Of a stretch of 64,000 nt of DNA, positions 12,101-29,841 are shown one piece after another (position 1 is the stretch's first letter; the number at the start of each line of letters is the position of its first letter). The position numbers and the translations under genes are program-made. The DNA is taken from contig JAZRKN010000015.1 in the NCBI GenBank assembly GCA_045646345.1, positions 128,001 to 192,000 of the forward strand. The letters are read 5' to 3'. Below the pieces are notes generated by a model. It made no database searches and had not been told where the DNA came from. It was given only the letters and a program-made list of their open reading frames with translations. Source of the DNA: Candidatus Scatovivens sp. GTDB taxonomy: Bacteria; Bacillota; Clostridia; TANB77; CAG-508.

Positions 12101-12927
12101 TCTTTTAAAACCTTTTCTTCTACAACTTGATTTTCATCTATTATATTTTCTAAATTACTTGTTGTATTTTCAACAACTTTATTTTCTACGCCTTCATTTA
12201 TCGTAGTGTTTGTAACTTCATTTTTTATTTCTTCTACTGTTGTATTAGAAATTGTGTTGTTGTTTTCCACAACTGTGTTTGTTGTGACTTTATTTTCAAC
12301 TATATTTTCCACAATTTTGTTTTCGGTTGTAGAATTTGTGTTTTCTTCTACAATTATATTTTCAACAATAGTATTTGTATTATCTTCTATCGTATCAACT
12401 TCATTTGATATCTCTGCTTTATCTTCAACAATTGTATTTTCAATTGTATTTGTTATTTCTTCTTTCTCTTCTTTTTCTTGAGTTTCATTTACAATTGTAT
12501 TTGTATTATTTAATTCATTATTAGGAGTTTGATTCACATCATTATCATCAATTGTATTTGTAGGAGTAGAATCGTCATTAACTACAACATTTTCGTTGCT
12601 TGTATTACTTTCATCTTTTTGTTTTTTTAGTTCTTCTAAATCAACAATCTCATCTGAATATATATAATATTTTTTTGCTATATATCCATTTACATTTTCA
12701 GGTAATTCAATATATGAATTATTATTTTCATCAGTTAAAAGCTCCAAATCTGCATTCATTGAATTCTCTGTTCCATATTCAATAAATTTTACATTTGTTG
12801 TAATAACTTCTTCTGACTTTGTTAAAAATTCAAATTTGTGCATTACTAATAAACAGATAGCTATTAAAACCACCGTTATTACAAGTTTTGCTCGATTTGT
12901 TATTTTTTTCTTACTTTTTCTAGACAT
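3145..12927 (-). CDS. Giant (~3,260 aa) surface protein/adhesin with (V/I)(Y/F)GG(G/S) beta-solenoid repeats
   Basis: Basic N-terminus plus a single TM; N/T/E-rich stalk; dozens of (V/I)(Y/F)GG(G/S)..G.V.G repeats ~25-30 aa apart; start moved to ATG 12927 (GGGAG RBS); no LPXTG at the C-terminus. Confidence 0.8.
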   Translation of the reverse strand: MSRKSKKKITNRAKLVITVVLIAICLLVMHKFEFLTKSEEVITTNVKFIEYGTENSMNADLELLTDENNNSYIELPENVNGYIAKKYYIYSDEIVDLEELKKQKDESNTSNENVVVNDDSTPTNTIDDNDVNQTPNNELNNTNTIVNETQEKEEKEEITNTIENTIVEDKAEISNEVDTIEDNTNTIVENIIVEENTNSTTENKIVENIVENKVTTNTVVENNNTISNTTVEEIKNEVTNTTINEGVENKVVENTTSNLENIIDENQVVEEKVLKEYLPGDKVYLTEEQLEKEDLNVLAEYQTIEINGVKLYNQELVSESAEAKIVVTGYVPVGYGLNVKAEDINEIEELKADVEELKDTTVLAAYDIKILNGELEYQPKDYYQTVNVAITSVEKFKDNLIGKSIEVLHINESEDEILFEKINVSNKTIDTVECVTNEFSRYAVIKEDEITPNKVLVNNYDNDYNYYMGLNYTEDFDGRKTPYTENDMAEVTVNYYSYNTNKTEMNQIETSTVSWTRSDAGSAGGNRIVNLDIAATFGNDQYVDTTKPWTMQFKAPVPDRFNATATANDTTNNDITITYNATTQIVTVTGNNWNSWTQNTYKKYTLDIDLAYTGTGTVATFSGINTYGFKVTGTERLLIGYISTIQPTATSNGERQTLMTYTHAVPISGGKVSVELIDNPYMDRPGGAGFNGWLSADTDATHTITTNAKTYVQTVSTNVGADRKVTINLYADWQDANVIFVDTTAGAQTNDGSMTTPVNNWVGINSRLAAAYNEETDTASDRELNIIVLKNGTLSNLYETANSAYTITSIYGGQDYRENATFQVSSTITLKQDAQLAFLTVDGPANYNNNSGMGWNTDHESATADLGTWVKANAFNFRIGRGMMPDNTDETEATFTQIQGGASGNANAEYRLVIETGKYLNVQVARAGSFTGHKIAATAIIGNDFDRVRNKNDDLNIYTKFSSRTGAATLDTLYAGVPIFDMRVKSGRIGLDCFKDTDDNKPYSGIYVGGHGSTGAHDNGDRILTVEGGLICNVIGGLASYDGDDARSFIYIKGGTIVNIVGGAGRSPTYGNRVIQVTDGTILYSVNGGSNGVASTTSDNGTLNGSTKLYIGGNAVIGAEDTLTNNADRNAQGVATLYGTEAGCVLGAGNGNDDPRLMGIAGRVLSSHIIIDGNATINNSVYGGGNYGVVNSSANDDDDDNGEPVCTFEDHTNNIVSGEVYIIANGTTPNSSRIFNVNNGTLTGSYLSNTQMPTNNNLWRVTKNGNEYSFYNIGQQRYLNNDRNNLTLSGNSRTFTASVVNNGIRFYFVRNGSNRYLRINGSTITGTTTSTSNATSFRFLKAVEIEKPDDEEQEEVTAVTIEMHGGKVNKNIYGGSNQSDIVGSSTVKTYAGTINGAIYGGSNQDGDITQDTYIYINGGTIGATGDFSEDVIFGGGLGNSTSVNGDATINITDSNGTIVLNGNIYGGSEAGTVSGDSKITVSDSVSPANTILITGNIYGGGKGAENDPATTNGDTTVIVDGGTYPGISVFGGCNVNGDISGKILVEIGKTYPTTVDNVFGSGNRAAVTTNSNGVQVDIFSNANVVNAFNGGNQAGIAGTNAQVPRKITVNGGTVGNLYGGSNESGQLQATFVYVKNNAIIGNAFGGGLGTEAQINGNTLLDVIGSTITGSAYGGGSQGQVTGNTIVNVTNSNINDSLYGGGKEASVATTDINIENSIVTNNIYGGGENGAVIGNVNNKSTDVYMLAGSQAQNVFGGGKGEPATVSNITFVTIDGSNVIGDKENMDAETPATNGNVFGGGDRGLVSGGSVISILNSSTITNNIFGGGNQADLGGNTSIAVENSSAFSIYGGGNAGNVDGTTAISALGTIIDKNIYGGGNQGEVTESTSVTISDTVDNTNQTITSDIGGSVYGGGRAANVNGTTVIIQNKTQAQNVYGGGEYGEVEYGTVVEIEDSTIENSVYGGGKGADGSADATLPGQVKGSCSVEISNNSVIQNRVFGAGEGITAEVGANTQVDFYGNSSTGDDIYGGGDNGPVKGATSLYISSGNIGGNAYAAGNGVTALVDISSYLGVDGNTTIAKSAFGGGNAAETGNKYIDGATGKETGDALVIVDIAGAVIGENVYGGANSSVIYGSTVINIGLEAINDYYASTNQAARSFVRGKVDIGGTIFGGGEQMDPTKEFNYDTISVTKTILINIDGEGYETSATDTNTFNFYESVFGSGNASSANTNGDINIRNYGTREVPKRGISIQRATNVVMDNASILLNGTTDSTSAHPEGLFALNRITHLKSKNNTTLYLVNGANLLAHYSSMVGEDGNEEYATAQIIDTVVGENGTSYQVINGKIYDGRGNLEYYVSNGAIFEPNTTGIGEDIEITKIATIQNATTINRNTDNRIYMYSGRNLNISDDEEVTSKYGDVKGMTFFGIFRSSDGGEGQPGNDANSVYMGMYDPSYTTGGTLSWNERDFNRSYVLGLHERNPEQDITKDGFYTVYEKMGVELDEDDILNAENYASFSPTSYTSYITPTPKDDVYYMWYAGPDDEVFYYSFILTASKHSTFGTKELSLLGISYENAVLTLTGVDASLVNGVGLYNKNDIPNINTDQRAANNNFGLTMKTSTSGWSMSGNTDVYADAITDINHTNNTSYDGTNKYIIENLKTTPAFVFFLYHSNNITEAKELGTVQFNMGLSYWRDALNRGSARIIIDAILLSEVYDDTGYNGAIAPGTHYDLFANTVTNITTESSFSTYFEFAQENFSQIENIRNYYDDSYRVITTEYPFPIGTTITMIDRWDKNNPAYYYLDITDDEYGRVEFRLDEFKVMGSSNEKFNEKSVRENYHITENNLDYEYENFIFIANFENAEFPELPEGQTAIVKDQHFRMYLKATIDGREEILFGLLDDQIDSIVYGIYDDESTIDVNASLSKSRVFLGNDVLLKVNTVYDVKKGEQSVTIYDTRYFDKKLGVKLTFYKKNDVTDEYEVVNGANLLGTYFELNNEKYYPRADGTTRIKIAELVSNASSSIKIGTENSALATGEYQIKIESFGSADGIYYGVEASATTWVSLELINDVYGLNSTLPVEQVIIDKATGYTLDAATGKMNEVGNNMLNFDIEYLSGLNNPYITVALYRREYDESMNNPYQNDYEKVDLTEYVTNELELPVEVNQVYDEEYQEFLDSIKQFEKEYTAIDTQTIKAAVIDNTISITLNADYTLKQDLKSGTYKVVFTLYDASDEIVYKEETNDKGESTQIPFDITEYMYIGDTFSYIIIK

Positions 12928-13128
12928 CCTAGTACTCCCATTCTTAATATAATACACTCATATTCTATCATAGAACCCTCTAAAATTAAAGTATTTTTGC
13001 ATTTTGTAACATAAATGAAAAATAACTCAAAATATGCTATTTTGAGCCATTTTATGTCAATTTTTTATTTGTTTTTTTTAACCTTTTTTACATTATTTTA
13101 CCATCTTTTTCTATATTATTTCATAAGC

Positions 13129-13169: not shown

Positions 13170-14201
13170 TTAACTAATTGGATCTAAACTAAAGCTTAAA
13201 TCATATTGGATATCTGTACCAGATGCGTTGTTTTCACAGTCAACATCTTGTCCTTCAACCCATAAATAAATTCTATATTTTGTAATACCAGCAGCTAATC
13301 CTCCATTCATTTCCATGTTTGGAATTCCAGAATTTGGTGTAGCCCAAGTTGGTTCAACAGCTTGGAATGAATTTGAATCATTAGCAGCAGTTGCATCTCC
13401 TAAAACAACACCAGTTACTTCAGCTTTAACAGCATCATATTCAATTGTAGGATTTCCAGCACCTGCAGTGATTGTTGCCCATCCTAAAGCGGCTGCGTTA
13501 TTAACACCGTTTTGAGTATGTGTATCAGCATTTGGTTCCCACATCATAACAGTTCCACCAGCAGTTGGTAACGCTTGAACTGTATTTGCATCAGCATCTG
13601 TAGCAGCTGTATTTGGTCCTTTTATTAAAGCAACACGAGCTGCATTTGCTAAACCTTTAACTGTATTTGGTTCTGTTACTGCACCTGACATATATAATTT
13701 ATCAGATTCTGTTTCAACTTTTAGAAATACATCGAATGCCATGTAATATCCTTTGTCGAACTCACCTGTTGTTGTAACTTCATCAGAAGCAACATCATTT
13801 TGTAATGTTGTAGTTAACAAATATTCACCATAGTTTGCACTACCTGTATCCATTTCAGCTTTTACATTACCATAGAACATTTTTAAATGTCCATTGTTAT
13901 CTAACTCTAATGCACTAGAAACTGGTGCCATTATTGTTGGTAATTGGTTTACTGAAGATGCATATGTATCATATGCATTAAATACATCATCTTTTGTTAA
14001 TACAGTTTTCCAAGTAATACCGTCAGCAGAAATTTGTAAACCACTTGATGTAGCAACTGTAACATCAATAGCATCGATGTTAACTGTTCTGTTGGCTGTA
14101 AACCAAGCGTATGTTGACATGATTAAAAGTACGGCTGTTAATAACAAAATCATAAGTAAATTGTTTAATCTTTGTTTACTTGCTTTTGTTTTTTTCTTCA
14201 T
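13170..14201 (-). CDS. SipW-cognate (TasA/CalY-like) fibre subunit, probable major subunit
   Basis: K-rich N-terminus, hydrophobic helix, MSTYA|WFT motif; C-terminal YRIYLWVEGQDVDC; AAGGAGG RBS before ATG 14201. Confidence 0.75.
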   Translation of the reverse strand: MKKKTKASKQRLNNLLMILLLTAVLLIMSTYAWFTANRTVNIDAIDVTVATSSGLQISADGITWKTVLTKDDVFNAYDTYASSVNQLPTIMAPVSSALELDNNGHLKMFYGNVKAEMDTGSANYGEYLLTTTLQNDVASDEVTTTGEFDKGYYMAFDVFLKVETESDKLYMSGAVTEPNTVKGLANAARVALIKGPNTAATDADANTVQALPTAGGTVMMWEPNADTHTQNGVNNAAALGWATITAGAGNPTIEYDAVKAEVTGVVLGDATAANDSNSFQAVEPTWATPNSGIPNMEMNGGLAAGITKYRIYLWVEGQDVDCENNASGTDIQYDLSFSLDPIS

Positions 14202-14215
14202 AATATCCTCCTTCA

Positions 14216-14914
14216 TTAATCAATATGCTCTTCTGTAATGTCCATATGCATTTTCATCTCGCCACCTAGAAGTGCATTCGTACAATCAGGGTCATCCCCT
14301 TCAATAAATATTACTATTGTAAACTTATCAATAGATCCAGGCGCGAAATTTTGTCTTGATTCTAGCATTACAGTATCCTCAGAATAAAAAGCTTTTGTAC
14401 CTTCTTCTGGAGCCTCAGTATGACCATTTAATTTGCCATAAACAGTTTGTTCTCCATTAAGGTATACCATAACTCTTATCGCTTCATCTACATTTAGAAT
14501 AACATCATCAACTAAAATTGAATACCAGTAGTTGATACTTTCTTTGCCTTCATTTTCAACATAAAAGGTATATGCTATATAGTTTTCCCCATTATGAGAA
14601 CCTTCTCCGGCTGTATCAAGGTCTTCTGGCAACCATTTAATTGAGATATTATCCATACCATCCATTCCAGTAGCCTCCAACCTTTTTGACACCACTTTTT
14701 CACTTAATCTTTCGTATATTACTATTCCTTTTTCCCAGCTTAAATTTTGATCCAAAATAACAGTAAAGTTACCTGCATCATAAATCATTGATAAAATAAA
14801 ATATAGTAAAATAAGAAATAGAAGCAAAATCAGTAGTGCCAATCTAATCAATCTTATTCTAAAATCGCGCTTATAAATTTTGTTAGAGGTTGTTTTAAAT
14901 TCAAACTTTGTCAT
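14216..14914 (-). CDS. Membrane-anchored protein related to the adjacent fibre subunit
   Basis: N-terminal TM without TYA-WF motif; C-terminal FTIVIFIEGDDPDC resembles YRIYLWVEGQDVDC of 13170-14201; AGGAGGTGAGG RBS. Confidence 0.65.
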   Translation of the reverse strand: MTKFEFKTTSNKIYKRDFRIRLIRLALLILLLFLILLYFILSMIYDAGNFTVILDQNLSWEKGIVIYERLSEKVVSKRLEATGMDGMDNISIKWLPEDLDTAGEGSHNGENYIAYTFYVENEGKESINYWYSILVDDVILNVDEAIRVMVYLNGEQTVYGKLNGHTEAPEEGTKAFYSEDTVMLESRQNFAPGSIDKFTIVIFIEGDDPDCTNALLGGEMKMHMDITEEHID

Positions 14915-15233: not shown

Positions 15234-16181
15234 ATGAAAAAAAAGAAAATTTTCAGAATAATTTTGTTAATATTAATTTTAATTTTAGCATTTTTAACAA
15301 TACGAGATACATATTCAAAATATATAACTCAAGCAGGAAATTCTTCTACTTTAAATATCTCTAAATGGAAAATTTTATTAAACGATCAAGACATTCGAAA
15401 TAATGCTGATTTTACACAAGATATTGCAATTGAATATGAAAACAACGAACATATAGCTGATGGATTTGTAGCTCCTACAACAAAAGGAAAATTCAATTTA
15501 TCATTAGAATCAACTGGAACATCATTACCATATGAATATGAAATCCAACTAACAGATGATAAACCTTATGAGGCATCGCTAAATGGAATCACTTTTGGTG
15601 ATGGTACAAATCCTTATTTATATGAAGTATTTTTAAAAGTTACCAATATACTCTCTGATTTTGATACTTGGGAAATGGAAATTGAAGTGCCAGACAATAT
15701 TATAGAAGCTAGTTCAAACTTTAGTATAGATAATTCAACTTATAATGAAACCTATACAGTTGAAAATAATATTTTAAAAATAAATTCATCTGAATCATTA
15801 TCTCAAAATGCAGAATTATCACTAAAACTTGTATTTGCATTTACAGATGATATTGATTTTGAACTTAGTAATATACGTATAAATGACGAACTTTTATACA
15901 ATCCAACAGATAGAATTGCAGACTTCAGAATCACATCATATACCATAAATGGAATAAATCGTAAAGTACCAGCACACACAAGTAAAATAACAGGACTTGT
16001 TACACCACCAGATGATTTATCTCAAGAAGTCAAGTATGATTTTTCTTTTACTGTAGAATGGTATGATGGAGATAATAATGTATATGACAATTTTAATGAT
16101 GTAGCAGCTATAAAGCAACTTTTACCAGCTACTATTCCAATTACATTGTCAGTTACTCAAGTTTTGGAGGACGCACCATAA
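15234..16181 (+). CDS. SipW-cognate fibre subunit (divergently transcribed)
   Basis: MKKKK-hydrophobic-DTYS|KYIT signal; VAP motif; VEWYD and terminal beta-strand PITLSVTQ. Confidence 0.7.
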   Translation: MKKKKIFRIILLILILILAFLTIRDTYSKYITQAGNSSTLNISKWKILLNDQDIRNNADFTQDIAIEYENNEHIADGFVAPTTKGKFNLSLESTGTSLPYEYEIQLTDDKPYEASLNGITFGDGTNPYLYEVFLKVTNILSDFDTWEMEIEVPDNIIEASSNFSIDNSTYNETYTVENNILKINSSESLSQNAELSLKLVFAFTDDIDFELSNIRINDELLYNPTDRIADFRITSYTINGINRKVPAHTSKITGLVTPPDDLSQEVKYDFSFTVEWYDGDNNVYDNFNDVAAIKQLLPATIPITLSVTQVLEDAP

Positions 16182-16201: not shown

Positions 16202-16236
16202 AAAAAGAAGTAGATTTTAAATCTACTTCTTTTTTT
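16202..16236. terminator. Bidirectional terminator between convergent subunit genes
   Basis: AAAAAGAAGTAGATTT-t-AAATCTACTTCTTTTT. Confidence 0.8.
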
Positions 16237-16253: not shown

Positions 16254-17063
16254 TTATGGATTTTCTTGACTTTGAACAGCTCTTATCTTTACTTCTATCT
16301 CTATACCATATTCTCCTGGATGGTTTTGATCAAAATCATAAGCTTTATTTCCCCAATATGTATCAATCTCATCTGCAGCATCTATTACAGTTTGATCATC
16401 ACTATCTACTTCATAATCCCAATTAACTTTAAACTTTAATTCAACATCCTCACTTCCAACTTCCATTGGTACTGGTGTTCCATTATATAAAGTATCATCT
16501 ATATATATTTCTATTTTAAATGGATAAGTTTTTAATAATTCAAATAATTTTTCTGAACTATATATTTCTTGAACACCTCCATTATCGTAGGTTGTCTCTC
16601 CAGCTATATATTCATCTTCAAAAATTCTCATTGATAAAATATCACAAGAAAGTTCTGCTTCTGTTTCTCCATTATTTTTTGCATTAATTAATTGAACTTT
16701 TTCTGTCATACCTGGAAAAATTTCTCCAACCTCAAAAAGAAAATTTTCTGTTTGGTCTCCACTTGATAACTCAAAACTCCAGTTTTTTACGTGCATTGAG
16801 ATATCCATTGATACAGTTGATATATATATAAACCACGCATAAGTATTAGCAATCAATGTTAAAAGTAAAATTAAAACTGTTCTTATTTTTAATCCTGAAT
16901 TCAACATTGAGCTATATCTTTTTCGTTTTTTCTTTTTTGAACTATTTAGAGTTTTTTCTGGCTTGTTTTCATCTTCATTTTCAATTGTTTCTTCTATTGC
17001 ACTATATAAAATTTCATTTTCGATATCTTCATATAGTATAGACTCTAAATCTTGAAAATCCAT
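16254..17063 (-). CDS. SipW-cognate fibre subunit with long acidic/basic N-terminal extension
   Basis: ANTYA|WFIY motif after hydrophobic helix; IFPG; VNWDY; terminal IEVKIRAVQ; GGAAGGAG RBS before ATG 17063. Confidence 0.7.
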   Translation of the reverse strand: MDFQDLESILYEDIENEILYSAIEETIENEDENKPEKTLNSSKKKKRKRYSSMLNSGLKIRTVLILLLTLIANTYAWFIYISTVSMDISMHVKNWSFELSSGDQTENFLFEVGEIFPGMTEKVQLINAKNNGETEAELSCDILSMRIFEDEYIAGETTYDNGGVQEIYSSEKLFELLKTYPFKIEIYIDDTLYNGTPVPMEVGSEDVELKFKVNWDYEVDSDDQTVIDAADEIDTYWGNKAYDFDQNHPGEYGIEIEVKIRAVQSQENP

Positions 17064-17099
17064 AATAGCTCCTTCCATTTATAATATTAGAATTTATTT

Positions 17100-17771
17100 T
17101 TATTCTTCATCATCTTCGTCGTCTTCATCATCTTCGTCATCTTCGTCGTCTTCATCATCTTCGTCATCTTCGTCGTCTTCTTCATCTTCTTCATCTTCGT
17201 CTTCTTCGTCTTCTTCATCTTCTTCTAGTTCTTCATTTTCATCTCTACCAGATTTTAATTGCAAGAAGAATAATACCGCAAAAGGAATAAAGAATACAAC
17301 ATAAAATGCTGTCATATTATTCATCAATTTTGTCAATAAACTTATCAAAACGCATTTATATATTACTTTTCCATAAATTTGATCACCTGTAATAGTAGGA
17401 TCTTCAGCAGGATTTGCTATACCTTTTGTATGGAAAACTCTTCCTCCAATAGATTCTTCTATTTCAATAATTTGGTGTGTTACAACTCTCCCAGCAAAAG
17501 AACCATGTTCGCCTAAATAAGTTATATCATCTCCTACTTTTAGAGTATTTGGATCTTGTTCTTTTACAATTAAAACATCTCCAACTTGATATTTTGGAAT
17601 CATACTTCCTGTTGCAACATTAAATACTCTAAAACCACCAATTGTTTTTTCATTATTTGAAAATCTTTGCAATGCAAGAACTGCAATTATTATTATTAAA
17701 AAAATCGCACATAAATATTTAATAATTGAAATTATCATACCTAGTGGTTTTAAATTTAACTTTTTCTTCAT
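17100..17771 (-). CDS. sipW: Signal peptidase I, SipW/S26B type (copy 2) with poly-acidic tail
   Basis: ATGSMIP, GDVLIV, VTHQI, TKG.AN...D, IYGKV; ~45-aa D/E tail. Confidence 0.85.
   Translation of the reverse strand: MKKKLNLKPLGMIISIIKYLCAIFLIIIIAVLALQRFSNNEKTIGGFRVFNVATGSMIPKYQVGDVLIVKEQDPNTLKVGDDITYLGEHGSFAGRVVTHQIIEIEESIGGRVFHTKGIANPAEDPTITGDQIYGKVIYKCVLISLLTKLMNNMTAFYVVFFIPFAVLFFLQLKSGRDENEELEEDEEDEEDEDEEDEEDDEDDEDDEDDEDDEDDEDDEDDEE
17103..17225. repeat. Imperfect 9-nt tandem repeat (GAAGAYGAY on minus strand) encoding EDD/EDE
   Basis: Arrays of tcttcatca/tcttcgtcg/tcttcgtca. Confidence 0.8.
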
Positions 17772-17816: not shown

Positions 17817-18935
17817 TTATTCTCTATTAATTTGTTGAACATATTTTCCAATATGTTTTTTAAATATAGCTTGAATTTCTTTATTTGTAACTTGCTTTTT
17901 GTATTTTACTATCGTAAATTGCTTACTAACCAAATTTCTCAATTGGTCTTCCGTTATTTGATCATTAACATCAATAACTCTTTCAACAATATTAGCAATT
18001 AATTGTTCTATTATTTCTTTTTTACGTTTTTTTCTAAGTTCTGGATTCTCAACATTTTGTAAGATCAAATAATCTAATAAGAAAGTTTCATCAGCATATT
18101 TTTTTGATTTTCCTCTTTCTTTATATTCCCTTACTTTGTTGTCCATTTCCCCTTTAGATTTTACATCCATTTCATTAATAAGGAAATCCCAAAGTTTAAC
18201 TGCATATTGGAAATTAACATTTTTTAATATCATGTTTGTTTTCTTAAGAGGTGGAGTTATTAGTGTTACGTGAGCTGCTTCTAGTTCTTGATAAGTAGGA
18301 GAAAATGTTAAAGCAATAACTTCTCTTTCTAACATTTTTATTCTATCTAATAGTTCATTTCTTTCATCTTGCGCTGTTGTATTTTCAGAAGCAGATGTCA
18401 AAAGTACTTGGATATCTACTTTATTTTTTCCATTATACGAACTTCCAACATAGTCCATCTTTTTGAACTCGTTAGAACTTACAGATTTATCTTCTAATAT
18501 TTTCTTTTTTTGTTGTCTTATAATAAACAACATTCTTTGAATCAATGTATAAATAAATCTGTTCTCATAAGTATTAAATGTTTCTTCTTTAAAAACATTT
18601 AGCATTTTTCCTGGTTGAACATCACCTTCTTCAGTAACATCTTCAATAAAACCAGCATTTTTTGATAAATGTTTTATCGCTTCTACTGTAACTTTTTTTA
18701 TTTTTTCAATTTTAACAACTTCTTCTTCATTTATAATAAGCCTCATAGGGTTTCTTAAAATATTGTCTAAATACTCAATAGTATCTTCCATTTTTTCTAC
18801 CCAAAGTTCTTGATTTTTTGGCTTATCTGTTTCAACTCTAACAGTCATTTTTGAAGATAGTTTGCTATTAAATGCATTAATTTTTCTAGAATCAGTATCT
18901 GCATATAATTCAAAAACATCCAAAATTTTATCCAC
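17817..18935 (-). CDS. DUF2357-like (McrC-partner family) protein without visible PD-(D/E)XK motif
   Basis: ETFNTYENRFIYTL motif, N.NF..AVKLWDFL; directly downstream of McrB-like gene; GTG start with AAGGAGG RBS. Confidence 0.6.
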   Translation of the reverse strand: MDKILDVFELYADTDSRKINAFNSKLSSKMTVRVETDKPKNQELWVEKMEDTIEYLDNILRNPMRLIINEEEVVKIEKIKKVTVEAIKHLSKNAGFIEDVTEEGDVQPGKMLNVFKEETFNTYENRFIYTLIQRMLFIIRQQKKKILEDKSVSSNEFKKMDYVGSSYNGKNKVDIQVLLTSASENTTAQDERNELLDRIKMLEREVIALTFSPTYQELEAAHVTLITPPLKKTNMILKNVNFQYAVKLWDFLINEMDVKSKGEMDNKVREYKERGKSKKYADETFLLDYLILQNVENPELRKKRKKEIIEQLIANIVERVIDVNDQITEDQLRNLVSKQFTIVKYKKQVTNKEIQAIFKKHIGKYVQQINRE

Positions 18936-18954
18936 TGTTTCCTCCTTAGAATTA

Positions 18955-20505
18955 CTATCCTAATTTCTTTAGTCTCAAAACGTATTCAATACATTCTTTC
19001 ATTTTGCCTTTTCCAAATGTTTTATCTAAGAATGTAACAAATCCATCAATTTCATCTTTAATATAAGCAATATTTAATTGTTCGAATTTTCTTAAAATCT
19101 TTTTAGCTATGAAGTAATCTATTCCTTCAACTTCATCTCCACCACAAGCAACATACGCTGAAACGAATTTTCCTAAGTGACTAACAATACGGTTACCAAA
19201 TGCAACTCTAAAATGTTGTATTACGTAATCATCCATTTCATTAATCTTTTTCCAATTATCTTCAGAAACTTCATGTTCTGCTCTAGCTTGCATAAATAAT
19301 TTATCTAAATAACTGAAGTTAATATCCATTGGTGGTGTATCTTCAGCTTCAAATACTTGTCCTTTATCGTTAATATCTATAGGCATCGCTCTATCGTAAA
19401 CCTTATCAGTTACCATAAATGTAGAGTCGTCATTGTTGATTGTTCCGATATACCAAGTATTTGCTGGTATCTTAATTCTACCATTTGTTATATGTTTTGG
19501 GTCATTTTCCCAAGGACTAGCTACAACCTCAATAATCCACTCATCTCTATTTGGCATCTCTAGAATAGATAACATTTCAGCGAAATAGTATTCAACACGA
19601 GCAAGGTTCATCTCGTCTAGGATTACTGTATATACATCATCTGTATATGTAGCTGTATATAAACATTCTAATAATTGTGTCTCATTAAATTTCTTTGTGA
19701 ACTCGTTGAAATATCCAAACAACTCTGTTCTATCTCTCCAAGACGGTTGTACAGATACAACGCAAGAGTCATGTTTTAAGAATTTTCCCCAAGCATAAGC
19801 AAGAGATGTTTTACCTGTACCAGAGATACCTTGTAGAATAACAAGTTTTGTTGATGCAAGACCAGCTATAAATATACGAATTAATGGTAATGCATAATAT
19901 AAATGTAATCTTGATGCAGCAAATTGTCTAAATGTTTCACAAAGCTCTTCAAGTGTAAAATCATTATTATAATTTTGAACTTTATATTTAGCAAACTTTT
20001 TATCAACAATTGAAAGTCTTGTAAATCTTACACCATCACCTGGATCTAATTCATCTTCTTTTTTCTTATCTCCATCAGCAGCTTTTGTTTTATCTACTGG
20101 AAGTTTTGAAGATTCATTTGGACTTAATCCTAATTGTGAAACTTTCATAGCAAGAATTTCTTCTCTTTCTTTTGTCATTGTTTCAACTCTTTTATTTAAG
20201 TCAGCAACTTCTTTTAACATAGTTTCTTGTTCTACTACTGTTTTTCTAAATCTAATATACTTTCTTAATATTAAATATACTAAAACAACTGTTAATATAA
20301 GTATTGCAGCAACTGCTAATACTGCTATAGCCACAAGTATCCATTCTTGTACAGAAAAATCATTCTTATATTCTTTAATTAAATGTATGTAAGCTGGAAT
20401 ATCAAATAATTGTCCAATTCCAGTTACTAATCCTGTTAATATTGTTTTTAATCCAGTGAAAAACGCGTCTAAAAATTCATATAAGAATCTTACATATGTA
20501 TCCAT
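18955..20505 (-). CDS. McrB-like AAA+ NTPase with N-terminal TM helix and coiled coil
   Basis: Walker A QGISGTGKT; VQPSW....ELFGY; Walker B ILDEMNLARVEYYFAEMLS; GTINNDDST....KVYDRA (McrB NxxD-type signature); TM WILVAIAVLAVAAILILTVVLVYLIL. Confidence 0.8.
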   Translation of the reverse strand: MDTYVRFLYEFLDAFFTGLKTILTGLVTGIGQLFDIPAYIHLIKEYKNDFSVQEWILVAIAVLAVAAILILTVVLVYLILRKYIRFRKTVVEQETMLKEVADLNKRVETMTKEREEILAMKVSQLGLSPNESSKLPVDKTKAADGDKKKEDELDPGDGVRFTRLSIVDKKFAKYKVQNYNNDFTLEELCETFRQFAASRLHLYYALPLIRIFIAGLASTKLVILQGISGTGKTSLAYAWGKFLKHDSCVVSVQPSWRDRTELFGYFNEFTKKFNETQLLECLYTATYTDDVYTVILDEMNLARVEYYFAEMLSILEMPNRDEWIIEVVASPWENDPKHITNGRIKIPANTWYIGTINNDDSTFMVTDKVYDRAMPIDINDKGQVFEAEDTPPMDINFSYLDKLFMQARAEHEVSEDNWKKINEMDDYVIQHFRVAFGNRIVSHLGKFVSAYVACGGDEVEGIDYFIAKKILRKFEQLNIAYIKDEIDGFVTFLDKTFGKGKMKECIEYVLRLKKLG

Positions 20506-20519
20506 TTTTTACCCTTCCT

Positions 20520-21515
20520 TTATCCTTCTAAAATTTTTGTTTTTTTGTATTGTTTTTTATTTACATCTTTAGTACTTACTATAATACGATCAAAAATTTC
20601 TAACATCTTAATTTCTTCTTTAGAAAGTTTTGGCATATCATCATTTGTTTTTACACAGAATCTAAATCCTTTTCTTATAACTTCAAATAATTTTTCTTTG
20701 TTTCTTACAAAATCATCATACTCTATTTCAAACAAAATTTTATCTTGAGCAGCTTGATTTTCTAATATTCCTAATAATTGATCTAATTTTTTCTTCTTAT
20801 TTAATAATTCTGGTGCAAAATCGCAAACATACATCTTATTAAAATTACCAACAATAACATCTTTTAAAGCTACAACTGCTGCCATTGGATATTCAACAAA
20901 CAATTTATCTTCACTTGTTATGTCAGAATTAAAAACTTCTTCTACAATTTCTTTACTATAAATTTCTGGAAATTCAAAAAAGTATTTTAATTTTACTCTA
21001 TAATAATTTGGATTTTTTGAATTTATTTTTCTAATATCCAAATCAAAATCTTCTGAATAATGCATGTCTAGAAAATCATCAACTTGCTCTAAATCCTTAA
21101 TTATTAAATCTAAAAATTCTTGTTTAAAATTGTCATCGTCAGAAGCTTTTATATTAAATTTTGTTACTCTTTTTTCTGCTATAGCATCTACAACATCATC
21201 TAATTCCATATTATATCTTACATTATCAAAGTAAAAATAATATTGAAATAAAGATAGATGATCTAATATTTGATCTGTACTTCTTGGAGTTTTTTTCATT
21301 AGCTTTTCGCTTTTTTTCTTAACAGCATCATATATTCTTCTGTAAAATATTCTAATAGAATTATCTACTCCATAATTATAGTATCTTGCATCAATATAAG
21401 TTTGGATTAATTCTTCAGAAATATTTTTATCATATCTACTTTTCAAAATTAAACTCATATATTTTTTAAGTCTTTTTTGTGTAGCATTAATATGCTTTTC
21501 AAAAATATTATTCAT
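20520..21515 (-). CDS. Hypothetical protein, possibly a degenerate EAL domain
   Basis: C-terminal half mirrors EAL spacing (VCDFAPELL..; KILFEIEY; IRKGFRFCV; MLEIFDRIIV) but lacks the EAL and DDFGTG motifs. Confidence 0.5.
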   Translation of the reverse strand: MNNIFEKHINATQKRLKKYMSLILKSRYDKNISEELIQTYIDARYYNYGVDNSIRIFYRRIYDAVKKKSEKLMKKTPRSTDQILDHLSLFQYYFYFDNVRYNMELDDVVDAIAEKRVTKFNIKASDDDNFKQEFLDLIIKDLEQVDDFLDMHYSEDFDLDIRKINSKNPNYYRVKLKYFFEFPEIYSKEIVEEVFNSDITSEDKLFVEYPMAAVVALKDVIVGNFNKMYVCDFAPELLNKKKKLDQLLGILENQAAQDKILFEIEYDDFVRNKEKLFEVIRKGFRFCVKTNDDMPKLSKEEIKMLEIFDRIIVSTKDVNKKQYKKTKILEG

Positions 21516-21532
21516 TAAACACTCTCCCTATT

Positions 21533-22591
21533 TTATATGTATGATACATCCACAACTGGTGGCGTGTTATTCATATTTGGATATGTATAATTTTCAGATG
21601 CATTTACTTTATAAAATTTAATTACCTTACTTTCTTCTGCATTCATCTTAAATTTAATCTGTTTAACATATTCATATCCCGGGTCAGTTCCTATAATTTC
21701 ATATTCTAAATCATCATCTTTATCAGCAGCTATATAAACACCTGCTGTTGTATCTAGTCTAAGAACACTAGAATCAAAAGCAAGTGTTATAATCATTGAA
21801 TGGCATTTTTCTTTCTCTGCTTCTGACAATCCCAAATAATCATTTATTGTTATTGAAGTTCCTGCAGGAAAAATTCCAACAGCTTCTTCAGTTATATAAT
21901 AATCTAATGTATTTGTTACAACAACTTCACAGTATGGGTCATATTCTTTATCTTCTATTTTATAACTCATACCTAAAGTTCCTATTTTAATATTGAATTC
22001 ACCAATCAATTCTGCAACATATGGTGAAGTCGATGTTGCTGTTATTTTTACATATATATAATCATTATTTTGTAAATTTGATGTTGTCTTTGGTTTTACA
22101 GAAAATTCAAAACTATCTTGGTTATTTGAAGATTGAAAAATCGTTCTTGAAAGAACATCTCCTTGATTTAAATTTTCTATACCTGTTATATAAAAATCTA
22201 TAATATCATCAGAATATTTAGTCCCATCACTTTTATAAACATCATATTCATATTCAATATTATAATTAATATCTACTTTAGAAACTTCACTAACATTTTT
22301 TCTACTATTCATGTTTACAGTAACTCTATATTCTTCAACCCCAGACCAGTTGTCAGACTCAAAATGCGCTATATTTGAAGACAATTTATCACTATTAAAA
22401 TAAAACTCTTTAGAAGTTAAATAATAGTTTCTAATTGATTTATAAACATATCTAGACAAAGTAACAGAGCCAGGCACTATTACTTTTACTAGCATATATA
22501 TTATTATGAATAATAGTATAAGCAAAAATAGCATTTTCTTTATACCACCATTTTTTCTCCTGATTCTTGTTTTAACTTTTCTTTCTTTCAA
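21533..22591 (-). CDS. SipW-cognate-like secreted subunit
   Basis: Basic N-terminus, TM, VTLS|RYVY variant motif, beta-rich body; TTG start. Confidence 0.6.
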   Translation of the reverse strand: MKERKVKTRIRRKNGGIKKMLFLLILLFIIIYMLVKVIVPGSVTLSRYVYKSIRNYYLTSKEFYFNSDKLSSNIAHFESDNWSGVEEYRVTVNMNSRKNVSEVSKVDINYNIEYEYDVYKSDGTKYSDDIIDFYITGIENLNQGDVLSRTIFQSSNNQDSFEFSVKPKTTSNLQNNDYIYVKITATSTSPYVAELIGEFNIKIGTLGMSYKIEDKEYDPYCEVVVTNTLDYYITEEAVGIFPAGTSITINDYLGLSEAEKEKCHSMIITLAFDSSVLRLDTTAGVYIAADKDDDLEYEIIGTDPGYEYVKQIKFKMNAEESKVIKFYKVNASENYTYPNMNNTPPVVDVSYI

Positions 22592-22609
22592 TTTAACCTC
22601 ACATCTTTA

Positions 22610-23287
22610 TTAAGTATTAGGAACATCGATTCTTTGTTCAGAATCAACAGTTATTTCTATACATTCAATTACATTTTGATATTGAACTGAATTATACCTT
22701 GCTGGTAATGTTACTTCTAATATATATGTATTAGTTTCAGGTGTTGTATAATAAAATTCATCAGAATCAGTTATACCTTCAGCTTTTTTATCAGCAGATT
22801 GACTAGCAAACACTAAATGCTTAAATATAGTATTATCTTCATCTAAATACATATTTTGATTTTGAACAGTTTCTATTTCTAATATGTTTGTAAGATTTTC
22901 AACATCCATTCCTTGATTTTTATACATTTTGTATTCTAAAGGTAAATTTGTTGTTGTTCTTATTTTCAAATCATAAAGCATATCAGTTTCTGTTGTTACA
23001 TTTTCTCCCGCATCATCTACATAGTAGTTTGAAACAGTAAATGCTATTCTTCTTGTTTCACCTGGAATCATCTCTTCTATTGAAATAACATTTGTTAAGT
23101 ACTCATCCTCTAGAGTATAAAAAGCAACATCTATATCAGCTGTAGAGCTTGCTTCTGACTCATATAATGAATAAGAACTAAATAAAATTCTATGTAACAT
23201 ACACACAATTAATATAGCAAGTAGAAATTTAATTCTACGTCTTGCTCTTATTGCTTTCCTTTCTCTTAAGTATTTTCCTCTAATCAT
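22610..23287 (-). CDS. SipW-cognate fibre subunit
   Basis: SSYS|LYES motif after hydrophobic segment; MIPGE; terminal IEITVDSEQ. Confidence 0.65.
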   Translation of the reverse strand: MIRGKYLRERKAIRARRRIKFLLAILIVCMLHRILFSSYSLYESEASSTADIDVAFYTLEDEYLTNVISIEEMIPGETRRIAFTVSNYYVDDAGENVTTETDMLYDLKIRTTTNLPLEYKMYKNQGMDVENLTNILEIETVQNQNMYLDEDNTIFKHLVFASQSADKKAEGITDSDEFYYTTPETNTYILEVTLPARYNSVQYQNVIECIEITVDSEQRIDVPNT

Positions 23288-23305
23288 ATAATCCTCTTTC
23301 GAAAT

Positions 23306-23791
23306 TTATTTTTCTTGCTTTGGTTTTTTAAATAAAAGCCATATTGCAATAATTGTTATTAATATTGCAATTATTACTTGTGGAGATTTTAGCACTTCAA
23401 ACCATATAGCCACATTCGCTATTATAAAAACTACTTTTCCTACTATATCTTTTTGTGTTATAGGATCGTCTTTTGAAGTATTAGCATCTCCTTTTGTTAT
23501 TATTTCATCTTCATTTATTTCTATAACTCTATGAGTTACAAAATCTTCTTTATATCTATAAGTTATAATGTCATTTTCTTTTACATCATCTGTAAGTTTT
23601 ACTATAACAATATCATTTATCTTTATTGTATCTTCCATACTTCCTGTTATAACTTGAAATATTGTATAACCACAAAAGTTAATATAATCATAATTAAATA
23701 TTTTTAGTTGTGCATAACAGTATGAAGCAATAATAAAAATAATCACTAATATAATCGTTATAAAATCTATCTTTTTTAGAAATTCTTTCAT
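23306..23791 (-). CDS. sipW: Signal peptidase I, SipW/S26B type (copy 3)
   Basis: ITGSMED, DIVIV, VTHRV, TKGDAN..DD, IVGKV; two TMs. Confidence 0.9.
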   Translation of the reverse strand: MKEFLKKIDFITIILVIIFIIASYCYAQLKIFNYDYINFCGYTIFQVITGSMEDTIKINDIVIVKLTDDVKENDIITYRYKEDFVTHRVIEINEDEIITKGDANTSKDDPITQKDIVGKVVFIIANVAIWFEVLKSPQVIIAILITIIAIWLLFKKPKQEK

Positions 23792-23811
23792 TCATACCCC
23801 ATTTAGTGAAT

Positions 23812-24480
23812 TTATTCACCAGTCCATTGAATTACATCTACTTTTATTGGAAGCTTAATTAAATTATTTGCTATAGACCCAATTTTTGAATCTATATCAT
23901 TATTTGCTTCGTTATCTTCCCATGTAACTTTAATTTCCAATTCATCAATTCTATCTGTTTCTCTTTCAGACATAATATCGTCTAATTCTTTAATTTTACT
24001 TATAACAATATTTCCTTCATCATCTCTTGGCAATTCAATATCTACACCATTTTCTTTTATGCCTGTTATTTTCAAATTTATTCTATCAGCTAAATTTTCT
24101 CCTGTAACCCCGACAGATTCTAGCATTTCTGCTATTTTCGAATCATCAATGGTTATTGAATATTTCACTGATACTTGTGTTCCTGTTGGATCTACTTTTA
24201 ATTTAAAATAACCACTCATTCCAGGTGCAACTTTGGGAGGTTTTACATTGGGTGCTGACTCCCAGTCCCATGTAAAATCATCAATTTCAAAAACACCTAT
24301 TTCTCCATTTTCATCTGGTACAGTTATATCTTTATCATTAATTTTTATAGACCAATTTGCTGCCGTTTCATTTATCACACCAGACGCTTTGTTGGTATAT
24401 TTTGAATATGTTGAACTAATTATTAACGCTAGTAAAATTAAGATTGCTATAAGAATAACTATTCTTATTTTTTTATTCAT
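23812..24480 (-). CDS. SipW-cognate fibre subunit
   Basis: MNKK-hydrophobic-STYS|KYTN; VAPG; VTWED....D; terminal IKVDVIQW. Confidence 0.75.
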   Translation of the reverse strand: MNKKIRIVILIAILILLALIISSTYSKYTNKASGVINETAANWSIKINDKDITVPDENGEIGVFEIDDFTWDWESAPNVKPPKVAPGMSGYFKLKVDPTGTQVSVKYSITIDDSKIAEMLESVGVTGENLADRINLKITGIKENGVDIELPRDDEGNIVISKIKELDDIMSERETDRIDELEIKVTWEDNEANNDIDSKIGSIANNLIKLPIKVDVIQWTGE

Positions 24481-24485
24481 TATTT

Positions 24486-25598
24486 TTACTCACCTTTTTT
24501 ATTTTTTTCAGCTTCTAGTTTTTTCTTTTTAGCTTCTATTAAAGCTTTCTTTTCTTCTGGTGTCATTGATTTTAATTTTGCTTCAATTAGAGCTCTTTTT
24601 TCTTCTTCTGTCATCGATTTCATTTTTGCTTCAATAGCAGCTTTTTTCTTTTGTTCTTCTGTTTGTTCTTGTTTTGGTTCTTCCTTAGTTTCAATTTTCA
24701 CTTCAGTAACTTCTGTTTTTACTTCAGCTTTTATTTCAACTTTTTCTGGAACTACCGAAACAACTTCTTCTTTTTTCTCTTCAACCTTCACTTCAGTTTC
24801 ATTTTTTTCTTCAACTTCAATTTTTACTTCCGTTACTGGTTCTTCTTTTTCTACTTGAACCACAACAGCTTTATTTTCTTCTATCTCAACTTTTACAGGT
24901 TCTGTTACAATTTCTACTTTTGGTTCTTCTGTTTTCTTTTGTTCTTCTACAATCTCTTCAACCATTTCTTTTATTGTTTCATCTTTTTTTACATTTTCTA
25001 CTTTATCAGATTTTGTAGATGTTGATTTTTTCTTTTTCTTCTTTTTCTTTTTCTTTTTCTTTTCAGCTTCTTTTGTTTCACGAACTTCTATTACAACATA
25101 ATTTAGAGTATATATAAAAGCAACCAAAGAAGGAAATACACCTAAGAATAAGAATCCCCATTTAGATTCTAATATGCTCAACACTTTACCTACATTAGGA
25201 ATTACTGTTGCATTTTCTGCATTTCCTATGTAGTATGAACTTGAAAATCTATAATCTCCTTCAACTGTATAAGTAAACTCTGTATCTGTTACTCTTTCAG
25301 CTTTAATAACCTTGGCATAGTTTATAGTAGTCACTCCATAAGTTGTTCTATAAAAGAAGATTACATCTCCTTCTTCAACTCGAGCTAAACTTCCTTTTGA
25401 CACAATAACTAAATCTCCAACCGTATAATCAGGTTCTAGATCTTCATCAATGATTGGTATAAGAGTACTTTTACCAAATTCTGTTACCTTATATTCATTA
25501 AAAGATAGCAAACAAATTGTGACAAATATTATCAACAAAATGTATGCAATTATTACGAAATTTTTAATAAATTCCCAAACTTTTTTCAAACTTTCCAT
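24486..25598 (-). CDS. SipW-like pseudo-peptidase with K/E-rich cytoplasmic tail
   Basis: SipW scaffold (LEP...GDLVIV, GDVIFF, GD, IP.VG, two TMs) but SGSM replaced by DEDL and THR absent; K12 run; SMT.EEK.ALIEAK repeats. Confidence 0.6.
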   Translation of the reverse strand: MESLKKVWEFIKNFVIIAYILLIIFVTICLLSFNEYKVTEFGKSTLIPIIDEDLEPDYTVGDLVIVSKGSLARVEEGDVIFFYRTTYGVTTINYAKVIKAERVTDTEFTYTVEGDYRFSSSYYIGNAENATVIPNVGKVLSILESKWGFLFLGVFPSLVAFIYTLNYVVIEVRETKEAEKKKKKKKKKKKKSTSTKSDKVENVKKDETIKEMVEEIVEEQKKTEEPKVEIVTEPVKVEIEENKAVVVQVEKEEPVTEVKIEVEEKNETEVKVEEKKEEVVSVVPEKVEIKAEVKTEVTEVKIETKEEPKQEQTEEQKKKAAIEAKMKSMTEEEKRALIEAKLKSMTPEEKKALIEAKKKKLEAEKNKKGE

Positions 25599-25835
25599 CT
25601 CATCAGTCCTTTTAATCCACATTTATACTTAAGAGTATATCATTATTTATTCTTATATTCAACAAGTTTTATATTTCATTTTTTTGTATTTTTGGTAATA
25701 TTTTTGTAACAAAAAAGTAATATTTTTTTGTCGCTTTTTGAAAGAAAATCCATTTACTTTTCCTTCCTCTTATATTATAATTATTCCTATAATGTAGGAT
25801 ATATTTTGAATTATTCTGCCAATATGGAGGTTGAA

Positions 25836-28800: not shown

Positions 28801-29732
28801 CAAAAGCAATTACAGAGTTAGAACAAACACCAGATATTAAAGAAGTAGAAAAAACAAAAAAAGTTGTACCTCTTGCCCCACTTCCAGCTGAGTTAACAAA
28901 TTATTCTGGCTCTGAAGATAAAGCAATAAACATTCTTATTAATAAAGATGATATCTTCTCAATTTCAATATTAAATGAAACTTATGAAATTGTTGCTGAT
29001 TTTGATGGTATATCTGTTCTTTCAGAAAACCTTCATATATCAACACCAAAAAATAACTTCTTCGTAAGAGTTGGAAATAAATATATTGAAATACACAACA
29101 AAAAAGATAACTTTATTTTAAATACTAACTTTGAAGATATCGAATTTGCAAATGCTATAAACAATATTGCTTTTGCTAAGAAAAATAATAAAATAGAATT
29201 AAATATTAAAGAAGCATTTAAGTTATCTTCTGTAAATAATAAGATAGAACTTTCAATGTTAAATAAAGCAATTGCAGATTTATCTACACCGACACAACAA
29301 GCTGAAACAAAAGATGAATCTTCAATCTGTGATAACAAAACTCTTCTAATCTCAGAGGAAACACAAAAAGTATATCTTCCATATACAATAGAAGATGTTA
29401 TGAAAAAATTAAAATCAGGTGACGAATATCAAACAGTTCAAGAAGTTGTTGATAACGAATATACATTACCACTTTCTACATTCAAAATGCCTATAATTTC
29501 TAGATTCAAAGAAGCTTATAGATTCATGAGAACAAAAGAAAATAGTTCTGTATATGCAGCTGTTGATTTAGCTTTAGAATTAATGTTTAATTCTAATTTA
29601 AACCCAGCAGTAATCAGAGCAGCTAAAGATATGAAAGAATTAAATATTTATTTAGATTGCTTATACGAAAATGAAGTTGAAAAATTTGATTGCTTCAAAA
29701 TAGTATATAAAGTATTACCAAAAATAAAATAA
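25836..29732 (+). CDS. Large acidic, largely disordered protein with N-terminal AT-hook-like motif and folded C-terminal domain
   Basis: GGAGG RBS before ATG 25836; SRGRPRK then K/S-rich segment; ~1,000 aa E/D/I-rich region; ordinary-composition C-terminus. Confidence 0.7.
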   Translation: MAIKSEEEIIKKPTASRGRPRKDAQASKTKKSSKSKTKKKSTKKASSSKKSTSKKVKSTTLKNVENVELINDVQIENTIPLITVSEETVLEEIVETSPVENNLIEDTLNLVIEEESTEEIETIIAEDEIINLDAQEIGEESLIEEVPETQEQVVEEDISSAVCEEVTEKPKKKRTIKNLSIKRSIPVVEEVIESEPEIEEEIIEESIVEEPVIEKIIELPVREKRTLRLNLGSKKQQVEEPVYKKDESINQNSAFFNEPSIFAKFNIDIISTDADDNTEIQDEIIEESSTSEEEALNDIEIIDETIVLPNDQIDELICETIVNQIIEEPTSISEEENTLEDLNDELLEQTILEEISKNISEETIEEELENSEILKSVRSILGGKLGSLEELTQDEEILPQDEQQDLIDEQDNVILFKNLVEDEEIIDNDDNEFLQIDQEEPEVLKEVADTIISDEPVSDNSPIGKFFDSSIPSMTSTVNNTFSKIKKSIFSNISPIFKKFTFEEATLMKHQDEFENNYNESENNLSDIQQALENFTPNVQATTNIVEMDILAESPATMPVIDTTTLVTTNNDEMVYEGPELSILTPASESSFDEDKELDEFIENAEQGILDDIEELENFEEPIDEIDETDEVENIIPEEIIEEEYDDEEFSIESYFGLDNVTLDEKDLKRINAIEDKIEDEVVEIEEYTSNPDEFVDKFLETNPIIEGIQEETIEEEALEETIQEETLSVELEPEQFVDKLLEDNISQEEVITEENSSKEVISEEVPEIIEEPVIENKESELEKALKEKNEELSSLSKLLETFTQTISTLTNRITDLENRQAAEPVVEEPENPTSDIIEDLIEESQSEIEEELSVDDIDINDLDLDDLDIEDLEFSEEEFEEPSLLSQENDVETEIETSVEEDEKSVESILSEVLLSKDLDSELKEELLSEVLSYEENLSPEDLDESLLEAALFDELSDEELLELDSQEEKLPEEEPLSDFSKIIESLTKAITELEQTPDIKEVEKTKKVVPLAPLPAELTNYSGSEDKAINILINKDDIFSISILNETYEIVADFDGISVLSENLHISTPKNNFFVRVGNKYIEIHNKKDNFILNTNFEDIEFANAINNIAFAKKNNKIELNIKEAFKLSSVNNKIELSMLNKAIADLSTPTQQAETKDESSICDNKTLLISEETQKVYLPYTIEDVMKKLKSGDEYQTVQEVVDNEYTLPLSTFKMPIISRFKEAYRFMRTKENSSVYAAVDLALELMFNSNLNPAVIRAAKDMKELNIYLDCLYENEVEKFDCFKIVYKVLPKIK

Positions 29733-29735
29733 TAT

Positions 29736-29837
29736 AAAAAAGAGCTTTTAAAAAAAGCTCTTTTTTCTTTTAATTTTACTTACATTTTAACTTTATCGGT
29801 ATAACAAAAAAAGATGCAGATTTTATCTGCATCTTTT
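29736..29837. terminator. Two terminators between convergent genes
   Basis: AAAAAAGAGCTTTT..AAAAGCTCTTTTTT and AAAAGATGCAGAT-ttt-ATCTGCATCTTTT. Confidence 0.7.
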
Positions 29838-29841
29838 CTTA

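Follow-up and report, generated by a model that had tools for sequence, protein, structure and literature searches.

The described systems closest to the locus analyzed here are the McrBC type IV restriction systems, the CoCoNuT systems, the CoCoPALM class, and the tapA-sipW-tasA operon of Bacillus subtilis. The locus lies in a 64,000-nucleotide stretch of the genome of Candidatus Scatovivens sp. (contig JAZRKN010000015.1, positions 128,001 to 192,000; this whole stretch is called the window). It comprises an McrB-family AAA+ gene, whose product we call the motor, and a DUF2357 gene, whose McrC-like product we call the partner, within a cluster of SipW-type signal peptidase genes.

In McrC of T. 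gammatolerans, the finger domain spans residues 99-288 and the nuclease residues 299-458; hydrolysis is stimulated by R263 of this protein and by K157 of Escherichia coli McrC (Niu et al. 2020, PMC7680126). The module shares with McrBC the AAA+ motor fold and motifs and, by our inference, a basic residue of the finger domain at the stimulating position. Unlike McrBC, it has neither a modified-base reader nor a detected nuclease, it carries a predicted membrane anchor, its NxxD motif is replaced by NxD, and a Ser occupies the position of the stacking aromatic residue. With the CoCoNuT systems (PMC11090510) it has in common the NxD clade, coiled coils, and an McrC that is often without a nuclease, whereas no HEPN, helicase, or other nuclease gene was found here and a transmembrane (TM) anchor and a SipW context are present.

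The CoCoPALM class was named in one paragraph by Bell et al. (eLife 2024, PMC11090510), who describe an NxD McrB fused to an N-domain with a TM helix and a coiled coil, an McrC/DUF2357 partner, and adjacent genes of the signal peptidase family. Their representative is RHC33375.1. They call the N-domain FtsB-like (HHpred, E 1.2) and report that a coiled coil is usually fused to the McrC homolog as well; the partner studied here is short and appears to lack a long coiled coil. The three features defined in that text are found in our locus, so that, compared by description only, the module matches a CoCoPALM member on its testable features as far as these can be read from sequence. The arrangement is thus not new as such, since it has already been named, and this limits the value of the finding. 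The naming paragraph is silent on substrates resembling TasA, on multiple SipW copies, on nuclease loss, and on EAL genes, to all of which our analysis points here. A literature search, outside which most subscription journals lay, found no experimental or follow-up study of CoCoPALM.

The B. subtilis operon resembles the cluster in its SipW with cognate signal peptides and in at least one TasA/CalY-like subunit family, and it contains no NTPase (nucleoside triphosphatase) as described (PMC4238804, PMC9674648, PMC9245690). TasA assembles by donor-strand exchange (PMC9674648, PMC9245690), and SipW has been reported to be bifunctional (review PMC4238804). Our cluster differs from this operon in having four SipW-like genes, of which one is inactive, some seven genes for subunit-like proteins, one for a giant exported protein, and the motor module. 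A conserved pilus of TANB77 (PMC11680825) was considered as the same system and set aside; its description features a type II/IV secretion ATPase and has no mention of SipW, and it appears to be different.

We give about even chances to the reading that the module is an NTPase switch, anchored in the membrane, that serves one SipW-processed fibre sub-module and has a cyclic di-GMP (c-di-GMP)-type link. The testable core has been narrowed to six genes:

13170-14216, minus strand: 348-aa SipW-cognate protein with a TYAWF motif, candidate major fibre subunit
14216-14914, minus strand: 232-aa single-TM protein
17100-17771, minus strand: SipW-type signal peptidase that has the catalytic motifs GSM/TH and ends in a poly-acidic tail (TIGR02228, 76.9 bits; cut-off, 51.85)
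17817-18935, minus strand: McrC-like DUF2357 protein, 372 aa, finger domain at about residues 39-259, helical C-terminus (Pfam, AlphaFold model, structure search)
18955-20505, minus strand: McrB-family AAA+ NTPase of the NxD clade, 516 aa (motifs, profile search, alignment, tree)
20520-21515, minus strand: 331-aa protein with a helical N-domain and a truncated, degenerate EAL-fold barrel at residues 154-331 (predicted structure)

The AAA+ motor

The identity, coordinates, and minus-strand orientation that the first-pass annotation gave for the motor and partner genes were confirmed, as were the McrB-family motifs that it quoted for the 516-aa protein (GISGTGKT, ILDEMNLARVEYYF, GTINNDDST, and KVYDRA). 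In the PDB, a profile of the motor family (46 sequences) matched E. coli McrB alone (3 sequences, E 1e-6 to 2e-6), and the NCBIfam McrB match to the protein was weak (E 1.2e-6). Walker A, Walker B, N357-N358-D359, and R372 are invariant in all 46 aligned relatives, the NxD motif being one residue shorter than the E. coli NTAD in the alignment, and the AAA+ features required of McrBC (Walker A/B, arginine finger) are present. Residue S234, which follows the P-loop, is likewise found in 46/46 motors and aligns with the E. coli stacking residue F209. Because of this Ser, and because some McrB relatives hydrolyse ATP too (bioRxiv 10.64898/2026.08.31.748284), the nucleotide may be either GTP or ATP.

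Conservation within the cluster is highest for the motor, with 86, 65, and 67% identity in three groups versus 61, 44, and 39% for SipW; the closest named relative of the motor comes from a metagenome-assembled genome of Candidatus Scatovivens, a genus of the order TANB77 (L002, 96% identity). The codon usage of the pair had been called host-like, and two measures agree with this: the codon adaptation index places motor and partner at the 21st and 20th percentiles of 832 genome open reading frames (ORFs), and G+C at third codon positions is 0.16 and 0.15, compared with a mean of 0.14. The conservation data largely refute the idea that a decaying restriction system was inserted by chance into the fibre operon and shares no function with it. 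A motor fragment without a partner does occur in 1 of 80 loci (L067), but with catalytic residues invariant, conservation highest in the cluster, and linkage that persists between classes and through gene rearrangement, we regard chance insertion as extremely improbable.

The N-terminus of the motor starts with amphipathic helices, followed by a hydrophobic helix (residues ~56-74) and the basic segment RKYIRFRK. The TM helix noticed earlier is supported by a hydrophobic helix, starting at residue 40-85, in 46/46 aligned relatives, and the coiled coil by a short coiled-coil-like segment judged by eye at about residues 88-121. The basic patch directly after the predicted TM helix suggests that the AAA+ domain is cytoplasmic. 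Pfam and NCBIfam detected no modified-DNA reader family in this N-terminus. The position of the helix also bears on whether the motor still translocates DNA, which could serve uptake or tether extracellular DNA to the fibre. DNA translocation is an activity of McrB (PMC7680126), and the C-terminus of the partner is Lys-rich in sequence; however, a membrane helix replaces the DNA-binding N-domain, and competence or conjugation families were not seen among the cluster genes in Pfam and NCBIfam scans, which makes such a DNA-handling machine very unlikely.

In a FastTree phylogeny of 110 AAA+ cores, the forms with 1, 2, and 4 TM helices constituted a single clade (support 0.999) that sits among long coiled-coil McrBs, whereas forms with 11-12 TM helices branched separately. 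The latter are McrB proteins of ~900 aa (L158-L161), whose own branch represents a second, independent membrane fusion. Two further McrB relatives (P0251 and P0253) have a hydrophobic N-terminus and ~280 residues ahead of the TM helix, possibly an extracellular sensor domain.

The DUF2357 partner

The partner contains the motif TYENRF and matches Pfam DUF2357 at E 5.5e-12. Its AlphaFold model (mean predicted local distance difference test [pLDDT] 76, predicted template modelling score 0.48) consists of a bundle of helices plus a long beta sheet and is all-helical beyond residue 276, with the last helices at low confidence. When the model was compared with 48,161 chains (VIA), two McrC structures gave the longest matches among the top rows: residues 39-254 aligned with residues 140-280 of T. 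gammatolerans McrC (Z 8.0, root-mean-square deviation [rmsd] 4.8, 139 aligned) and residues 40-259 with residues 34-190 of E. coli McrC (Z 7.8, rmsd 4.6, 143 aligned). Both matches are confined to the finger domain, and because generic helical bundles reach similar Z values, the assignment is supported but not proven. Foldseek returned nothing for the model at E 0.001 (E. coli McrC at rank 13, probability 0.72), the partner profile did not match the E. coli McrC profile (probability 0.2), and a PDB sequence search with the partner family gave nothing significant. Residues 41-142 align with nuclease-bearing DUF2357 proteins (97%), whereas the C-terminal half does not.

The end register of the T. 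gammatolerans alignment places R263 at partner residue 237 +/- 1, and K238, kept in 53/55 partners, belongs to a segment (K238-N239-x-x-F242) that resembles E. coli K157-N158-x-x-Y161. From this register and motif likeness we infer that K238 is the counterpart of the stimulating K157/R263. Another candidate for this role, K110, was dropped, as the E. coli sequence puts K157 in GGKNTRYY.

No PD-(D/E)xK nuclease domain was detected in the partner, in line with the earlier claim that it lacks one. A D/E-x-K nuclease motif was present in 0/75 partners and 0/120 homologs. A hidden Markov model (HMM) built from the nuclease region of 23 control McrC proteins matched none of 1,315 ORFs around TM-McrB loci (best E 0.22) and 26 control ORFs, and the helical C-terminus and finger-only structural match agree with this. 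The window partner ends in short helices at low pLDDT; relatives of 410-720 aa have long extensions.

Linkage to SipW and subunit genes

A genome scan found 131 motor relatives, the best 80 of which were used as loci. SipW occurred in 78/80, the two others being contigs of 3-5 kb, and the DUF2357 gene was next to the motor in 77/78. In 71 of 75 scorable loci SipW followed the DUF2357 gene; the other four have SipW directly upstream. Within the order, the motor was present in 19/151 genomes, and the 348-aa subunit in the same 19/151, besides a fragment interrupted by two stops and, at a contig end, a weak match. The EAL-fold gene was found in 18 of the 19 motor genomes by search and in the 19th (L166) on inspection, with one additional contig-end fragment. 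Relatives of the motor were detected in 12/300 genomes of the class and in 71/121 genomes from the order to which a Bacilli-labelled relative belongs; a search of 400 other genomes of the phylum gave no close relative (best score, 164 bits). The tight linkage of homologs to sipW and subunit genes, for which a neighbourhood survey had been proposed as the check, was thus borne out.

As controls we used 40 of the 53 distant NxD McrB genes from the phylum scan. None of these 40 loci had a SipW label or a clear TM helix in the McrB (one was borderline), and 23 had a partner with the DAKY nuclease motif. A wider set of 40 loci was hand-picked from the scans of the class and of the Bacilli-labelled order. 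It included 18 distant one-TM loci, with SipW in 18/18, the 232-aa anchor in 15/18, the 348-aa family in 15/18, and EAL genes in 16/18 (four weak; search seeds came from four of these 18 loci, confirmed by Pfam). Ten 4-TM loci have SipW and lack EAL, the other twelve of the 40 have neither, and a nuclease match was obtained around 0/40.

The 4-TM McrB subclade (L149-L157 and L162) has an upstream 3-TM SipW, and in two scanned loci an ABC transporter and a single-TM protein of ~800 aa lie downstream. Eight loci without SipW (L131, L132, and L143-L148) form a subclade, mostly with one DUF2357 gene flanked by two or three McrB-like genes, and adjoin large surface proteins with transglutaminase-like or MBG domains.

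The neighbours in the other TM subclades, namely surface proteins of 1000-1600 aa or the ABC transporter, are also consistent with an export or extraction motor, in which the membrane-fixed ring and the McrC-like shaft would carry folded subunits, the anchor, or the giant adhesin across the membrane or pull them out of it. Bcs1 and Msp1 are analogous membrane AAA motors that move or extract proteins. Conservation of the active site and the membrane anchor fit such a motor, as does the rotation of McrC inside the McrB ring proposed by Niu et al. (PMC7680126). In the solved McrBC structures, however, the finger fills the central pore and leaves no obvious channel (PMC7680126), the signal peptides of the substrates are ordinary, clusters that have an exported protein of about 1,700 aa but no motor exist (L170 and L173), and the EAL link would go unexplained; we therefore consider this alternative unlikely.

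Defence context

It had been noted that no methylase or mobile element lies nearby, and this held for the remainder of the window: 29 further ORFs at 29.8-64 kb, most of them housekeeping genes, included no DNA methylase, integrase, or transposase family, and a single Methyltrans_SAM protein is located 19 kb from the pair. A PADLOC scan of the unlabelled flanking ORFs of the loci (270, reduced to 146 representatives, of which 141 were scanned) yielded matches at 1e-10 for 13/141, scattered over 9 loci and without a methylase, so that the homologs lie outside recurrent defence contexts. No HEPN or other nuclease family was seen beside the partner with Pfam, NCBIfam, and PADLOC, the folds of the 537-aa protein, the 1334-aa protein, and the 331-aa N-domain being unassigned. 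Two patterns searched in viral contigs found no motor relative, and plasmids and phages gave partial matches only (34-38% identity), with no close relative.

These data weigh on the possibility of a membrane-linked anti-phage module that would sense phage binding to the fibre and trigger dormancy or fibre shedding. The McrBC and CoCoNuT ancestry, with long coiled-coil McrBs as sister clades, agrees with it, as do the patchy distribution and a PADLOC PDC-M26A match to the AAA+ part only (E 9.6e-38, residues 200-323). Against it, scans of the loci found no nuclease or other effector, whereas nuclease-less CoCoNuTs always adjoin HEPN or another nuclease (Bell et al., PMC11090510). The flanking matches are scattered, and the high sequence conservation and the fixed operon position are unlike typical defence genes. 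We judge a defence role to be rather improbable.

The degenerate EAL-fold protein

The first-pass annotation had placed the pair between SipW and subunit genes. Its co-orientation and the short gaps (14, 19, and 45 nt) are as described, but the upstream neighbour is no subunit; it is the 331-aa protein, which has no predicted TM helix. Its model is confident (pLDDT 93), and all structural matches listed by Foldseek and VIA are EAL-domain proteins, the best of them FimX EAL, to which residues 154-331 align with Z 13.1 and rmsd 3.4 over 169 residues. The comparison bears on this part, with N-domain residues 1-153 barely covered, and the barrel is shortened, covering about 200 of the 250 residues of an EAL domain span. 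The EAL catalytic positions (EAL glutamate, DDFG loop) are not conserved acids in the family, 0/47 members exceed the Pfam EAL cut-off, and a PDB sequence search with the family gave nothing significant.

The gene is directly upstream of the motor in 64/74 scorable loci. In 6 more, the degenerate EAL-fold protein is joined to the C-terminus of SipW as a fusion (L038:7992-10001, L039, L042, L043, L045, and L047). LapD and FimX, whose structures are among the matches, are degenerate-EAL regulators of adhesin release and pilus assembly, respectively. The 331-aa protein resembles them as a degenerate EAL fold tied to a surface-appendage system and differs from them in its truncated barrel, 5-15% identity, and different partners. 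Of two GGDEF-like proteins that the genome encodes, one has GGDDF and the other has no motif, and a canonical EAL protein was not found in it; c-di-GMP synthesis in the host is possible, as far as these sequences tell.

Cluster layout and other genes

Ten co-oriented genes, 5-45 nt apart, run from 25598 to 16254. No terminator-like hairpin is listed inside this run. Promoter-like matches were no more frequent than chance (84 versus 86.7 expected), and no promoter is therefore claimed. The remaining features are as follows:

629-1240, minus strand: fourth SipW-type peptidase, at the cluster end
1254-2867, minus strand: 537-aa protein of no known family, by eye like a ~525-aa family of 30 related loci
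3145-12957, minus strand: 3270-aa exported repeat protein, candidate adhesin, with relatives in 55/82 stretches examined
15234-16181, plus strand: convergent gene for a subunit-like protein homologous to the 222-aa family (HHalign, 99.7%)
16202-16234, both strands: terminator-like hairpin closing the ten-gene run and the convergent gene
16254-17078, minus strand: 274-aa subunit-like protein with a TYAWF motif
21533-22591, minus strand: 352-aa subunit-like exported protein
22610-23287, minus strand: 225-aa subunit-like exported protein
23306-23791, minus strand: SipW-type signal peptidase with catalytic motifs (TIGR02228, 74.9 bits)
23812-24480, minus strand: 222-aa exported subunit, likely of the TasA/CalY (camelysin) family (Atlas, PDB search)
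24486-25622, minus strand: SipW-like pseudo-peptidase with a long charged tail, probable start at 25598 (catalytic motif check)
25728-29732, plus strand: 1334-aa acidic protein, divergent, with a conserved C-terminal domain and relatives beside 39/82 stretches

The 222-aa family has good evidence of being TasA-like; for the 348-aa family there is no more than a lead. The former falls into the Peptidase_M73 cluster (Atlas score 0.95, 202 shared features) and weakly matches TasA in the PDB (5OF1, E 0.64); the mature part of the 274-aa protein resembles it (HHalign, 73%). In the 348-aa family, a TYAWF-type motif is found in 53/57 members and a weak match to the SipW-cognate signal TIGR04088 in 24/41 (best E 2.4e-4), and a PDB sequence search gave nothing significant. 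The 232-aa protein, the second most conserved of the cluster, is homologous to the 348-aa subunit (95.6%), and since a SipW cleavage motif occurs in 0/58 of its family, it is likely an uncleaved membrane anchor.

The SipW-like product of the first gene of the operon (24486-25622) is possibly a chaperone-like pseudo-peptidase; the catalytic Ser/His pair is found in 0/64 members of its family. The tail of the SipW next to the partner gene (17100-17240, minus strand) consists of ~45 nearly all Asp/Glu residues, and acidic tails of varying length recur in near relatives. Relatives of the 1334-aa protein of ~300 aa adjoin many clusters, motor-less ones included, and its C-terminal domain belongs to no known family. 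A DUF4116 repeat protein (82-612, minus strand) directly follows the cluster.

Assessment of the switch reading

That the restriction motor was repurposed for the fibre, as first proposed, stands as the best reading because of the linkage to sipW and subunit genes, the lack of a recurrent defence context, and the failure to detect a nuclease fold in the partner; a general requirement for the motor in such fibres does not stand. Several observations weigh against the switch. SipW-type genes occur in 60/151 genomes, compared with 19/151 for the motor, and of 20 regions fetched around SipW or subunit matches away from the motor, 8 contained SipW with subunits like the 222-, 225-, or 352-aa proteins and no motor in the fetched stretch (two of these reach contig ends). 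As SipW/TasA-like clusters without a motor occur, the motor is apparently not needed for all such fibres, and TasA, once purified, assembles into fibres and bundles in vitro (PMC9674648). Other partners of the motor exist as well, since 8/40 of the wider TM-clade loci have two or three tandem or adjacent McrB-like genes and no SipW. Its distribution is patchy (15/54 genomes of the family), as for defence genes. The family labels behind the linkage counts were built from the same 80 loci, and kin are not independent samples. The 331-aa family matches EAL domains only weakly by HHalign (5.8%), and with the catalytic residues absent, binding of c-di-GMP is doubtful. For the 348- and 232-aa proteins, membership in the TasA family is a lead only (Atlas, 0.84). 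The functional evidence for the switch consists of genomic context and prediction.

None of the 8 motor-less clusters has the 348/232-aa pair, which indicates that the motor goes with one sub-module and not with all such fibres. A motor-less example occurs in the genome of the window itself (G000:C9, ~21600-31000, L173), where SipW and subunit-like genes accompany a 1701-aa exported protein, with no motor in the fetched stretch.

In the proposed switch, the motor and its partner, in which no nuclease was detected, would use nucleotide to control how a SipW-processed, TasA-like surface fibre is assembled or released. By analogy with solved McrBC structures, the motor would form a hexamer that six helices anchor in the membrane and whose AAA+ ring faces the cytoplasm, and the finger of the partner would enter the pore, where K238 would stimulate hydrolysis like K157 of E. 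coli and R263 of T. gammatolerans McrC. The C-terminal part of the partner, in the place of the nuclease, would pass the stroke to a membrane platform of SipW tails and the uncleaved 232-aa anchor. The degenerate EAL protein would tie the switch to c-di-GMP-type signalling, which may run inside-out or serve surface sensing.

A more specific version, which we think has a small chance of being right, is a rotary machine. The McrB hexamer would be the membrane-fixed stator, the McrC-like finger the rotor, with an adaptor replacing the nuclease, and the EAL-derived c-di-GMP module would gate the building, retraction, or shedding of a donor-strand TasA-type pilus. If true, a family known for passive self-assembly would thereby gain its first powered, dynamic fibre.

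The hosts are uncultured bacteria of the gut with small genomes, and almost nothing is known of how they adhere. If the fibre role of the NTPase switch is true, a defence motor would have been recruited for cell-surface biology, and SipW/TasA-type fibres would have an energy-using control element.

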